From: a virus
Taxonomy: Duplodnaviria; Heunggongvirae; Uroviricota; Caudoviricetes
Length of the DNA: 10,008 nucleotides
Strand: one strand, 5' to 3'
IMG/VR virus record: IMGVR_UViG_2609459804_000005
Under the pieces are notes generated by a model. It worked only from the letters and a program-made list of their open reading frames with translations, did no database searches and had not been told where the DNA came from. Below are positions 2,289 to 6,600 of this stretch, one piece after another; the first letter of the stretch is position 1; every line of letters starts with the position of its first letter. Both the position numbers and the translations under genes were made by a program.

Positions 2289-3640
2289 TCAGCCAGTGTT
2301 TCCACTGACACAAAGTGTTCTCTGATCTCTGGTCTCGTAGCCTTATGCACAACAGATGCAGGCATAACCAGCGCAAATCTGGTGCCCCAATGCGCGCAAA
2401 ACACGAGGCGTATCCCCAACTCTGAGCATTTCCCTTCTGGAAACCGATTGTAATCCGGCAATGCGACGCACTTCTGAAGCACGCCCTCACCTTCCGGCAC
2501 TTTGAACGGATCAGGCTTACCGCTACGGGAGTACTGAGACGATGCGCCAGCGCCATCCTCACGCGGCGTGTAACCTTCCCGCACACGCTGGCCTAACGTG
2601 CGAATAGTTTCGCGAACAAGTCTGATATCGTTCAGCTCCGTCGGCTTCAGTAACCCCGTGCGACGCAGTACCCCTTTGACCAGGGCAACAACACGCTCCC
2701 ATGCCGCCACAAATTTATTCGGCTGTTTCTCCGCCATATGTGCCAGAAATTCACCCGCCTGCACTTCCGGTGATTCCTTACCATAGGACGCATCAACCTT
2801 ACGCCAGGCTTCACGGATGGTGGCGTTATCACTGTCGCGGGTTTTCAGCACGGTCTTAATGATCGTCTGATATTCCGCTGGCGTGACAACATGCTCCATG
2901 GCATGGTGGATAATCTCGTGACGCAACTTCTCGCGTACGGTCCGCCCGTCAGGGATGTTATCCGCCACCAGGACAATTTCACGTTTATCCGGACGATAGA
3001 ACGCGTGCACCTTGCCGTAACCGTCGAATGATTCACCCGCCAGTGCTTCAGCCTCTTTCTGTGATTTCACCACGCGGACCTTCAGGTCACTGTCCTTAAT
3101 GCCACTAATCACGCCACGGGCAACCGCTTCAACCTGCGGGACCGGGCTGCCTTTGGCTTCCGCACTGCGGTTAACATCCGAAATGAGATTGCCTTCAGGT
3201 GTGCGGGTCACGCCCTTACGGGAATAAAACGCAACGCCCTTGTCCGTCTCACGGGTTTTCAGGGTGCGGAACAGGTGATCGAATGCCTCACGAATACCAC
3301 CATCCAGTTCCGCATTCGTCGGATAAGCCCAGGTGTTATCTGTGTTGTGCTCAGGTGCCTTACGGATATTGACCAGATAATCATTCTCCACGCCAGCCGT
3401 ACGCGCTTTATCCTGAACATAACGCTCAAAGGCACGCGCCGCCATTTCAACATCCGTTGACCAGTACGGTTTTGAGCGCACCTCATCGAGAAGAGCTGAA
3501 CGACGCGGCATGTCACTGTTTTTAATGGCCTCAATGACACCTTTAAACGCGTCGTAAACCTCCTGACGCACCGGATATTCAGCATCAACATATCTGCCGT
3601 CTTTAAATACGCGCCCGGCACGCTGGCTTCCGTCATATAG
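2216..3640 (-). CDS. Second-frame segment of the giant ORF (about 475 codons); carries an HEIIHH zincin-like motif
   Basis: Frame with codon starts congruent to 1 mod 3 opens just after TGA at 3643-3641 and runs to TAA at 2218-2216. From 3640 it reads LYDGSQRAGRVFKDGRYVDAEYPVRQEVYDAFKGVIEAIK..., clearly protein-like. The track lists it from a GTG at 3571 with no SD. It contains HEIIHHAMEH (HEIIH = 2920-2906). This frame is -1 relative to the upstream 1,431-codon frame. Confidence 0.7.
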   Translation of the reverse strand, partial: LYDGSQRAGRVFKDGRYVDAEYPVRQEVYDAFKGVIEAIKNSDMPRRSALLDEVRSKPYWSTDVEMAARAFERYVQDKARTAGVENDYLVNIRKAPEHNTDNTWAYPTNAELDGGIREAFDHLFRTLKTRETDKGVAFYSRKGVTRTPEGNLISDVNRSAEAKGSPVPQVEAVARGVISGIKDSDLKVRVVKSQKEAEALAGESFDGYGKVHAFYRPDKREIVLVADNIPDGRTVREKLRHEIIHHAMEHVVTPAEYQTIIKTVLKTRDSDNATIREAWRKVDASYGKESPEVQAGEFLAHMAEKQPNKFVAAWERVVALVKGVLRRTGLLKPTELNDIRLVRETIRTLGQRVREGYTPREDGAGASSQYSRSGKPDPFKVPEGEGVLQKCVALPDYNRFPEGKCSELGIRLVFCAHWGTRFALVMPASVVHKATRPEIREHFVSVETLADLPQLLTDPVAVCVRKLNRMRWYL

Positions 3641-6600
3641 TCACCACCTGACGTGATCTTCCCGTCAGTGGAAACATCATAACGACCAAAATAATTATCC
3701 AGTGAATGGAACCATTCGTGGGCCAGCGCCCCCGGTCCGTTACCTTTTGTCAGGTTGATTGCCACCTCACCCGGCTCATAGTGTGCCGCCGCCTTACCCT
3801 TACCACGGGCACCAAAAGCAAGCCCAAGACGACCGTTCAGAGAAAGCGCTTTTGTCGGCACGTTCAGCACATCAGCAAGGTCATGCAGCGAGTCATAAGC
3901 CCGGTTCAAATCAGCCTGACGACGCGGACCTTCCACATAATTACCAAACTGCACACCACGAAAACCAAACGCATCACTGAACTGCTCCGGCGAAACATCA
4001 CCCTTGCGGCGTTCTGGTCCGGTACGATCGCGGTTGGTGGCGTTACGCTGCTCCTCACGCGAAATCTCACGCATCTCCTTCACATGACGAACAAGCTCAT
4101 CACGATGTGAATCAATGTACTTACGCGCATCACTGGCTGACTTAAAGCCACCTCTCACCCGCATTTTGTTTTTGCCGTAAGCGATAAAAATATCGCCACT
4201 GCGGGTATTCCGGTAAACGTCAAAGCTGATTTTGTCATCCGGTGACGGTGCTGTTTTTTCATCACCTTTCGCCCGTGACTTTTCCTCCTGCTCTGCAAAC
4301 CAGGCTTTCGCCTTTGTCAGTAATTCATCCCTGCTTTCCGAGAAAAAGAGGTTACTCCCCTTATTGTCCTTATTGCGCAGTGAATAAAGTTTCTGTGGCG
4401 GATCGTAACGCTTCCCTCCGGCCGCCTGATACACACCGGATACCACCCGATAAGCAGAAGCCTTGTCCATCTGCGAAGGTGGCAGCGTGCGTAACAGTTG
4501 CCAGGTATCCGCATAACGGGAAGGCATTCTGCCTTCCATCCACTCAGCAAGCCGTCCGGCAGTCACTTTTCCTTCCAGCATTCCCGCCACACTTGTGCGG
4601 ATGCTCTTTACACTCTCCACCCACTTCACTGCATTGAGTTTCGTCTTCGCCGGAATATCGCTACGATACAGCGCTATCATTGCCAGGGTATCAGCATCGG
4701 CACCTTCGTTCGCCAGTTTTGCGTAGTCCGGTTTCGGGAACAGTTTGCTCAGCGGTTGCGTGACATAATCCCTGTCTTCCAGCGTTTTACCCAGTGTTTC
4801 GGCAAGCTGTGCATAACGGTGTTTTGCCGCGCCCTTAATCTCCTCGCCAAAGTCTTCAATTTTTGCACCACGCGCCTGCTGGTGAGTGCTCGGTTTATCT
4901 ACCGGCACCGGCACCGGCACCTCAGTATCCGGAACATCGGTTATGGTCTGGCGATTATCCCCGGTCTGTCTGCGCGCTTCTGCCTGCTGTGCCAGTTCCG
5001 GAAGGGAGTCACGAACCATACGAGGGAGTGATTCAGGATGTGGCATATCAACCCCACGCTGTTCAGGTGCAGGAAGTCCTTCACGCACTGGTGCTGTGGC
5101 GTTCTGCTCATCCGGTGACGGCAGACCACGACGAACCGGTTCGCTCTCCAGTATTTCCCCCTGGCGACCAGCGGCATTTTCCGGTGCCTGCGCACGTCCT
5201 TTCTGGAAACTCTGGCCCTTCACCTCACCGGTTGTGGTAAAACGACCACCACGTCCGGCCTGATTTTCATCCGGCGTACGCGCCACTTCTCCTGGTAACG
5301 GATATCCCTGTCCGGGATGAATATCGCCGGGAGCGGGAAGGCGTGGACGCTCAGTTAACTCCTGTGCTGTCGGACCGGCATCACCTTCAGCCATCTGTGA
5401 ACGTACAAGCTCCTCTGCCGTCGGCGCGTTGCCACGGGCAAGGCGGGCCTGCACTTCTGTATCATCCCCCGTAAAACCACGGAATCGCGGGTCACGCATG
5501 AACGCGGGCTGTTCCATCGGATCAGCATCAGTAATACGCTCTCCGTCAGCCAGGGTGTTAATGGTCTCCGTTGCCACATCTTCAGAGAACGCAGGATTAT
5601 CCATTTCAACGGCATACTGATTCTCGCCTTTCTTCACTACGGACGGTTTCAGGCCGGTGGCGCTGGCATTGCGGAAAACATCGCTCCCCAGAGCACTTTT
5701 TTCATCCGTGAAATAACGGTTGTCCGGACGCACCTTTTCAATGCGTTCTGCTGGTCTGGACGCACCACTCCCGTTAATTTCAATACGAACTTCATCCGGA
5801 TCGCGGAACCGCACCGTCGGGTAAATACTCCCGTCGCCATCATCCGCATTTTCCGGCTGTGGCTGTGCCTCCGGTCTGGCCTCCTGCTGAGGGCGAAGCA
5901 CATCACGGATAGCCCGTAACTGCTGCTCTTCAGTATCAGTACGCCCTTCCTTCAGGCTGAGTTTTCGGTATTCCTCAAGCAGTTCAGGGCGCGGCTTCGC
6001 CTTCAGCTCATCCATCACCGCCTGTCGCTTCGCCTGTTCATCCAGTTCATTCAACAGCTGGCTGGCGGCTTCCCGGCGATGAACGGCAGACGTGTCTCCC
6101 TCAGGTGCCATATCCGCATCAGCATACTGTTCCAGAAGTTGCTCGCGATTCATGCCCTGCATGGATTCGCGATGCTGTGCCACCGGATCAGCCGGTTCGG
6201 GTTGCGGGGCTGCTTCACCCTGAGGAACGCTTTCAGCCTCACGCATGGCGGTTTCTTCTGCGGCATGACGTCTGCCACGATATCCGGCAACCGCACCGAA
6301 TGGTGCCCCCATCGCAGCACCAAGGGCTGCACCTTCGATCGTTGCGTCAGCCACGCCCTCCCCCGGTGACACATCCATTCCGGCGGTCTCACGCAATGCC
6401 GTGTTTTCCTGATAACGCGAATAGCCACCCTGCGCCGCATTAATCGTCCCCTGTTCCGTGGCATTTCTGACAATGCCGCTTTTAACGGTCTTCGCCGTGC
6501 CCCGCATCGCCAGATTAAACAACTGAGCATCGCCCAGTTTTGCCGCCATGGCATTCACAGCCAGCAATTCAGGATCGGTTGCCAGCTGCGCGCGCACCTC

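Follow-up and report, generated by a model that had tools for sequence, protein, structure and literature searches.

The first frame break of the giant gene in this window is almost certainly a non-programmed loss of one base at 3626/3625, with no recoding signal involved and with the TTTAAAG heptamer downstream of it a bystander. The window is the whole stretch of DNA analysed, 10,008 nucleotides in length. A sequence-only reading had placed the break at the heptamer, with a one-base deletion in the A/T runs as its fallback. When intact homologues are aligned, at both nucleotide and protein level, the junction falls instead 18 nt 5' of the heptamer. The fallback was essentially right in invoking a deletion, but the lost base does not lie in the A/T runs: it is missing from GC[A]CAG at 3626/3625.

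The window is the entire 10,008-bp contig JNNG01000073.1 of E. coli 2_052_05_S4_C1, taken from a MaSuRCA draft of 179 contigs built from Illumina 100-bp reads. The contig measures only 10 kb, and both of its ends lie inside prophage genes. Judged by domain architecture and synteny, which agree with those of a phi24B gp47-like gene, the minus-strand gene that begins at 7554 encodes the LPD5/LPD1/MuF_C/LPD38 polyvalent virion protein (~2,790 aa) found in prophages of the 933W/phi24B type. In the closest intact homologue (2789 aa), Pfam locates LPD5 at residues 1044-1193, LPD1 at 1354-1433, MuF_C at 1742-1840, and LPD38 at 2472-2677; LPD5, MuF_C, and a weak match to LPD38 are recovered on the fragments in the window. 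The genes upstream of the giant gene encode 218 (cut by the contig end), 148, 83, and 420 aa, and the same set is present in related loci. Over its whole length, the window shares 92-96% nucleotide identity with the loci of the phi24B gp47/933W-type giant protein in Stx and non-Stx prophages of the Sepvirinae, and the four upstream genes and the domain order are the same. Iyer et al. 2017 (PMC5512222) described the polyvalent protein family. Proteomics detected gp47 (2,811 aa) in the virions of phi24B, and a role as an ejection protein has been proposed for it (bioRxiv 10.64898/2026.04.10.717836). Unlike the phi24B gp47 and 933W-type genes, the copy in the window is not a single uninterrupted ORF of ~2,790 aa; it is divided among three frames and carries nine small disabling deletions, and all of its lesions are deletions. 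The first fragment is a minus-strand ORF of 1431 aa (7554..3259). The last one extends into the N-terminal part of the LPD38 region (weak hit) and has no more lesions.

Table 1 Features of the giant gene and its first frame break in the window
Feature	Position	Strand	Evidence
Segment 1 of the giant gene, starting frame, aa 1 to ~1309, with LPD5 and HExxH	3626..7554	-	tblastn
HEWFH (CAC GAA TGG TTC CAT), zincin-like HExxH motif	3706..3720	-	sequence
TGA in the -1 frame	3641..3643	-	translation
Missing base, true frame break 1; window GAAGC^CAGCGTG	3625..3626	-	alignments
Segment 2 of the giant gene, -1 frame only, homologue aa ~1309-1690, with LPD1	2480..3625	-	tblastn, Pfam
TTTAAAG heptamer, phased T TTA AAG only through the upstream deletion; bystander	3601..3607	-	alignment
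Second TTTAAAG, 60 nt downstream of the first, same phase relation, Phe-Lys in intact genes	3541..3547	-	heptamer scan
Stop codon of the out-of-frame zero-frame read-through	3259..3261	-	translation
Eight further deletions over the MuF_C domain, with adjoining patches of the other allele type	1986..2479	-	alignments
Segment 3 of the giant gene, third frame, runs off the contig end	1..1985	-	tblastn

At 3626/3625, the intact sequence is GAAGCACAGCGTG in L001-type alleles and GAAGCCAGGCGTG in L003-type alleles, and the deletion-bearing sequence of the window is GAAGCCAGCGTGCC. The deletion site, GAAGC[A]CAGCG, is not a homopolymer. When the intact 2789-aa homologue was used as the tblastn query, its residues 1-1308 matched window positions 7554-3625 in a single frame with 92% identity. 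The protein match changes frame at residue 1308, and intact proteins contain exactly the -1-frame QRAGRVFKDGRYVDAEYPVRQ. The seven -1-frame residues ahead of the lysine of the heptamer, QRAGRVF, are likewise those of intact homologues; the zero-frame SVPGAYL does not match. Inserting one base at 3626/3625 yields 1692 open codons. The module interrupted by the break, AHYE...INLTK...LAHEWFH ... RS..D..R..YWS..E.AARAFE...NDYL.N...YPYP, is a single polypeptide in relatives with as little as ~40% identity. Within it, H71, E72, W73, F74, and H75 occupy columns that stay invariant among aligned relatives at identities as low as ~43%. No solved structure for the HExxH/LPD1 module came up when PDB sequences were searched with a profile at E<=0.1. 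Two other ways of producing a frame break at this place were considered and rejected: a homopolymer indel inside TTTAAAG, the heptamer being base-for-base the same in all homologues, and transcriptional slippage, because the longest run of identical bases at the site is three.

Comparison with intact copies argues that the deletion belongs to this contig. Every full-length match to a 651-nt query, in 425 complete E. coli genomes and 185 phage records, carries one base more (652 nt in each listed row), and every record inspected is annotated as one ORF of 2,787-2,800 aa. Orthologues thus show the uninterrupted single frame that had been named beforehand as the result that would count against a shift. 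Two copies elsewhere (L006 and L014) are IS-disrupted or otherwise interrupted. A 25-mer across the deletion had no exact match in GTDB species representatives, IMG/VR, or JGI metagenomes, and an 81-nt megablast across it found no gap-free 81/81 match among 5,426 E. coli genomes. Similarly, an exact look-up of the fragment ORFs of 1431, 331, and 65 aa located them on this contig alone. Other colonies from the same child are of other sequence types and supplied no clonal sibling. By these searches, the deletion of frame break 1 is private to this draft contig.

The observations made around the heptamer are themselves sound. T TTA AAG is present at 3607-3601 in X XXY YYZ phase, with the zero-frame codons TAT TTA AAG. 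The -1 frame meets a TGA at 3643-3641 and opens at 3640 (R W * L Y D G S Q R A G R V F K D G R Y...), and the zero frame does turn Arg/Cys/Trp-rich past ~3600, its stop at 3259 lying 114 codons beyond the heptamer. All aligned homologues have the same seven bases, which they read codon by codon as TTT AAA G (Phe-Lys-Asp), a non-slippery phase; in more distant relatives, the heptamer is not conserved and the stretch is a variable linker. Hence no conserved frame split with a phased heptamer was found in orthologues, and the X XXY YYZ phase in the window exists because one base was deleted 18 nt upstream. TTTAAAG is an ordinary Phe-Lys pair that the upstream base loss moved into slippery phase. 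The zero-frame ORF contains 12 XXXYYYZ heptamers, three of them in phase, and two of these three are TTTAAAG at ancestral Phe-Lys pairs (3607 and 3547). When a 1-nt deletion was placed at random in intact homologues, a heptamer that thereby became correctly phased followed within 45 nt at 8-9% of positions, or at 2.7-3.8% for the X XXA AAG type only. One phased-heptamer coincidence among the nine lesions of the gene is unremarkable.

A stimulatory element, either a hairpin or pseudoknot 5-8 nt downstream or an upstream SD-like sequence, was not found at the heptamer. The 101 nt downstream (3600-3500) fold with -29.7 kcal/mol (z = -1.33), and 21 of 200 shuffled sequences folded as well. Scanning 3300-3800 against Rfam at E<=1 gave no match, and no AGGAGG-like sequence was seen by eye in the ~30 nt upstream.

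A programmed -1 frameshift at U UUA AAG (3607-3601) would join the zero-frame N-terminal part to the -1 frame and produce ...PGAYLKDGRYV..., the junction peptide that the sequence-only reading had predicted. The heptamer is phased in the contig, the -1 frame is open across it, and a published list of efficient -1 motifs of E. coli includes U_UU.A_AA.G (PMC4066793). However, the homology junction lies upstream of the motif, with QRAGRVF already matching intact proteins in the -1 frame; the full-length homologues all have the extra base, and the inspected records hold a single ORF with the heptamer as TTT AAA G. The predicted peptide is not ancestral, the ancestral one being ...MTEAQRAGRVFKDGRYV; the product of a slip on the heptamer would read ...AYLKDGRYVDAEYPVR, and its ancestral counterpart is ...AQRAGRVFKDGRYVDAEYPVR. 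Furthermore, the weak downstream fold, the lack of an Rfam match, and the distant zero-frame stop all speak against programming, the eight frame breaks downstream would truncate any shifted product, and the arrangement occurs on this contig alone, with the heptamer not kept in distant relatives. We therefore regard a programmed shift as vanishingly improbable. Low-level slippage at the site is physically possible because U UUA AAG is among the efficient E. coli motifs, and a real deletion could be partly suppressed by an adventitious -1 slip on it. Such a slip would yield trace amounts of a protein in which SVPGAYL replaces QRAGRVF, a change of six residues. Motif and phase are right, the altered residues fall in a variable linker, and heptamers with no stimulator shift up to ~0.3% in E. 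coli (PMC4066793). This rescue needs a real deletion, however, and the downstream lesion cluster would still truncate its product; neither a stimulator nor any sign of selection was found, and we consider it extremely unlikely. Even pooled with a genuine micro-patch exchange between co-resident ~55% identical alleles as the source of all nine lesions, the slip is given a very slim chance.

The origin of the base loss is best approached through the other eight lesions. These comprise a deletion of seven bases at ~2479, single-base deletions at 2389, 2374, and 2254, two-base deletions at 2066 and 2043, and single-base deletions at 1996 and 1986. Eight of the nine lesions thus crowd into 500 nt, and the gene is lesion-free over 5.9 kb. 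All nine lie at points where the contig passes from one of two allele types of the gene to the other. Where the bases of 2470-1980 differ from the L003-type allele, 20 of 24 match the other allele group, where 9 would be expected (p about 5e-6). Patches of the other allele run for 1-15 nt, in a region where the two alleles share only ~55% identity. Away from the lesions, long segments equal known alleles with 0-1 mismatch; private columns number only 17 in 7.5 kb, most of them at lesions, and substitutions are not elevated. The contigs of other draft assemblies (P0085-P0087) end 3-25 codons past 3626/3625 and mark an assembly-graph branch point. Natural intact alleles are also fine-scale mosaics here (for example, P0095), so allele switching alone is no proof of misassembly.

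From this pattern, we infer that the deletion at 3626/3625 probably originated in an assembly consensus collapsed from two putative co-resident prophage copies, an origin that we place ahead of genuine mutation. At 3625, the alleles read ACAG versus CAGG, and a gapped pile-up that dropped both gap columns would leave the CAG of the window, one base short. A model in which all gap columns are dropped reproduces the lesions at 3625, 2479, 2374, 2254, 2043, 1996, and 1986. Dropping both gap columns does not clearly reproduce two of the nine, the change from G5 to G4 at 2389 and the loss of TG at 2066. The gene shows what a collapsed paralogue would leave, namely lesions at allele switches, deletions throughout, and a short contig bounded in a repeat. 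The second choice, a possible though less likely one, is that a genuine mutation inactivated the gene in a defective prophage, in which the giant gene would be a pseudogene made by a clean 1-nt deletion and an aberrant recombination patch with a second allele. The frame is broken at nine places, prophage genes are often inactivated, with a frameshifted tail-fibre gene and IS insertions near the gene in other strains, and natural alleles recombine at fine scale here. Against this, the crowding of the lesions is unlike neutral decay, and the spread lesions, relaxed substitution, and sharing by relatives of a decaying pseudogene were not seen. The lesions occur in no other assembly, although there is no clonal sibling to compare. 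Moreover, patches of 1-15 nt between alleles of such low identity stand against it; at ~55% identity, they are, by estimate, too short and too divergent for RecA-type exchange. Whether the base was lost through an assembly artefact or through mutation, there is no recoding signal.

Bacterial programmed -1 sites include A AAA AAG in dnaX, A AAA AAG in IS911/IS3, and the phage tail chaperone G/GT. Like these sites, the window combines a correctly phased heptamer of the X XXA AAG type with an open -1 frame. Unlike them, it lacks a conserved frame split, a stimulator, and a zero-frame stop close by; its junction lies off the heptamer, and the phase was made by a private deletion. The window also resembles the collapsed-repeat errors of short-read drafts of multi-prophage E. 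coli: the contig is short and bounded in prophage genes, two alleles form a mosaic, every lesion is a deletion at an allele switch, and the contigs of other drafts break at the same spot. The two lesions that do not fit set the window apart from the simple collapsed-repeat model. As a general caution, a slippery heptamer beside a frame break can come from any one-base loss upstream, because codon-aligned XXX YYY (such as Phe-Lys) then becomes X XXY YYZ; comparison with orthologues settles such cases at once. Because it probably mixes two prophage copies, this contig is unfit as evidence of recoding or of gene decay. Its annotated products KDT31366.1 and KDT31365.1 (AC67_5532/5531) are to be read as pieces of one gp47-like virion protein gene and not as separate proteins.

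Nucleotide alignments locate break 1, the first frame break of the giant gene, at one missing base between 3626 and 3625. Every full-length match to a 651-nt query around break 1 carries one extra base, with 652 nt among the matches listed. The window reads GAAGC^CAGCGTGCC at this site, the L001 allele type reads GAAGCACAGCGTGCC, and the second allele type (loci L003, L002, and L004) reads GAAGCCAGGCGTGTT. An intact homologue protein matches the zero frame, which starts at 7554, as far as ...GGDYMTEA (3625) and the -1 frame from 3628, as (S)QRAGRVFKDGRYVDAEYPVRQ. Moreover, with a single base inserted at 3626/3625, the frame stays open for 1,692 codons, reaching 2480. 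The sequence-only reading had described the local layout correctly, including the X XXY YYZ phasing of T TTA AAG (zero-frame codons TAT TTA AAG), the opening of the -1 frame after a TGA, and a zero frame that turns Arg/Cys/Trp-rich and stops 114 codons beyond the heptamer (about 115 in that reading). However, the break does not coincide with the heptamer, as the missing base lies 18 nt 5' of it. The fallback of a one-base deletion was thus right about the deletion but wrong in assigning it to the A/T runs of the heptamer.

Coordinates of features in the window and of Pfam domains in the closest intact homologue of the giant gene.
Feature	Window position (minus strand)	Homologue (aa)	Remarks
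83-aa ORF	8912-9163		Immediately upstream of the 420-aa gene; "bacteriocin" in RefSeq prophage/phage records; no recorded Pfam match
Zero-frame ORF	7554..3259		1431 aa
N-terminal ~450 nt	7100-7554		Hypervariable between alleles (17-23% divergence, in-frame indels)
~300-nt stretch	4800-5100		Hypervariable between alleles (32% divergence from L001)
LPD5		1044-1193	Pfam
LPD1		1354-1433	Pfam
MuF_C		1742-1840	Pfam
LPD38		2472-2677	Pfam
LAHEWFH (HExxH)	3706-3720		Invariant
TGA preceding the -1 frame	3643-3641		-1 frame opens at 3640
Missing base, break 1	3626/3625		Not a homopolymer
TTTAAAG	3607-3601		
Second TTTAAAG	3547-3541		60 nt downstream, same phase relation; Phe-Lys pair in intact genes
AARAFE, NDYL, and YPYP blocks	~3300-3480		
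Eight further deletions	2479-1986		-7, -1, -1, -1, -2, -2, -1, -1 relative to closest intact alleles
Segments with in-frame length differences only, no frame-breaking lesion	7554-3626 and 1985-1		5.9 kb

No base of TTTAAAG differs among the aligned homologues; their reading frame divides it as TTT AAA G (Phe-Lys-Asp), a codon alignment that keeps it out of slippery phase. The seven -1-frame residues upstream of its Lys are identical in intact E. coli proteins (...MTEAQRAGRVFKDGRYVDAEYPVRQE...), unlike the junction predicted for slippage at the heptamer, ...EASVPGAYLKDGRYV. Intact genes each contain 15-18 codon-aligned XXX YYY Z heptamers, and a random 1-nt deletion in them creates a correctly phased heptamer within 45 nt downstream at 8-9% of positions (2.7-3.8% for X XXA AAG alone). 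The 101 nt downstream of the heptamer fold no better than shuffles (z = -1.33; equaled by 21 of 200), and an Rfam scan of 3300-3800 returned no match. Relatives at about 40-62% identity lack the Phe-Lys pair, and the heptamer stretch forms a variable linker in them. Programmed -1 frameshifting at U UUA AAG is refuted, since orthologues read as a single uninterrupted frame, a result that the proposal itself had taken to count against it. On these comparisons, the heptamer is a bystander, and neither it nor break 1 represents new biology.

The same relatives carry conserved blocks upstream (AHYE..INLTK..G.G.LAHEWFH) and downstream (RS..D..R..YWS..E.AARAFE...NDYL.N...YPYP) of break 1 in one polypeptide, implying that the break splits a single conserved HExxH-containing module. 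The giant gene is annotated as one ORF of 2,787-2,800 aa ("LPD38/LPD5 domain-containing protein") in all records inspected. Exact searches with a 25-mer across the deletion came back empty from GTDB species representatives, IMG/VR, and JGI metagenomes, and the surrounding 81 nt had no gap-free match in any of the 5,426 complete E. coli genomes searched. The fragment ORFs, of 1431, 331, and 65 aa, are all three on record for this contig only. The deletion is thus private to the contig; the remaining colonies from the source child have different sequence types and so provide no clonal control.

The contig, JNNG01000073.1 (10,008 bp, complete in the window), is one of 179 in assembly GCA_000700545.1 of Escherichia coli 2-052-05_S4_C1 (ST452, phylogroup B2, O81:H7; locus tags AC67_5531/5532), which was isolated from the faeces of a Tanzanian child. 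Genomes of that study were assembled with MaSuRCA 2.3.2 from 100-bp Illumina HiSeq 2000 reads (PMC6222053). Both contig ends lie inside prophage genes; on the minus strand, four small prophage genes precede the giant gene, which leaves the contig at position 1. The whole window matches 933W/phi24B-like (Sepvirinae) prophages at 92-96% identity in 427 records (426 of the 5,426 complete E. coli genomes), as well as 186 phage records at the same identity. Up to three copies of the giant gene occur in some genomes (480 places in 425 genomes).

All nine lesions in the giant gene are deletions, and they fall where the contig flips between the two allele types. Those downstream overlie the MuF_C domain, over which homology consequently hops frames six times, while long stretches of the gene match known alleles at 0-1 mismatch. 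Within 2470-1980, where the two types are only about 55% identical, 20 of the 24 aligned bases differing from the L003-type allele carry the other group's state (9 expected; binomial p about 5e-6), in patches of 1-15 nt. Because the variant bases flanking the deletions are drawn from this second type, region 1986-2479 gives the appearance of two prophage copies merged into one consensus. At 3625, three consecutive bases distinguish the alleles (ACAG vs CAGG), and a gapped alignment GCACAG-CG / GC-CAGGCG whose consensus dropped both gap columns would yield exactly the window's GCCAGCG. This model reproduces lesions 2374 and 2254 and fits 2479, 2043, 1996, and 1986; lesions 2389 and 2066 are not clearly explained. 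Partial proteins from several other E. coli draft assemblies stop, at contig ends, 3-25 codons past the break-1 site (P0086 with ...MTEAQRAG, P0087 and P0085 with ...AEYPVRQ(E)), suggesting a recurrent assembly-graph branch point, and at about 3584 L001-type sequence gives way to the L003 type in this contig. Sequence comparison thus marks ~3560-3615 as an apparent recurrent recombination and assembly breakpoint.

The short, prophage-bounded contig, the multicopy gene, and this branch point agree with the allele pattern at the lesions, and the deletions probably stem from two prophage copies that were collapsed into one consensus. Fine mosaicism is also seen among intact natural alleles in this part of the gene (P0095), which calls for caution over an artefact. 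Genuine mutation in a defective prophage is possible, if on the doubtful side: ordinary homologous exchange would, by estimate, need longer and less divergent patches than these of 1-15 nt at ~55% identity, but IS elements in or beside the gene in other strains imply that genuine inactivation does occur in nature. Locus L014 encodes a truncated 2,492-aa product adjoining an IS3-family element, L006 carries the same element with no giant-gene product called, and in L012 and L013 the gene is intact and an IS1 element lies directly downstream. Partial rescue of a real deletion, through adventitious slippage on the heptamer that chance has put in phase, is very improbable. As supposed initially, U UUA AAG is intrinsically shifty, being among the efficient E. 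coli motifs of Sharma et al. 2014, in which the best heptamers without a stimulator shift only about 0.3% (PMC4066793). The downstream lesions, if real, would defeat rescue anyway, since no full-length product would result even if the -1 shift at break 1 were perfect.

Iyer et al. 2017 (PMC5512222) defined the protein class to which the giant gene's product belongs. Proteomics detected the phi24B homologue, gp47 (2,811 aa), in virions, and an ejection role was proposed for it (bioRxiv 10.64898/2026.04.10.717836). Outside the two hypervariable stretches, alleles differ by 2-5%. A profile search of PDB sequences (E<=0.1) found no solved structure for the HExxH/LPD1 module. The HExxH and AARAFE/NDYL/YPYP module also occurs in stand-alone LPD5+LPD1 proteins of ~335 aa in metagenomes, at 37-46% identity.
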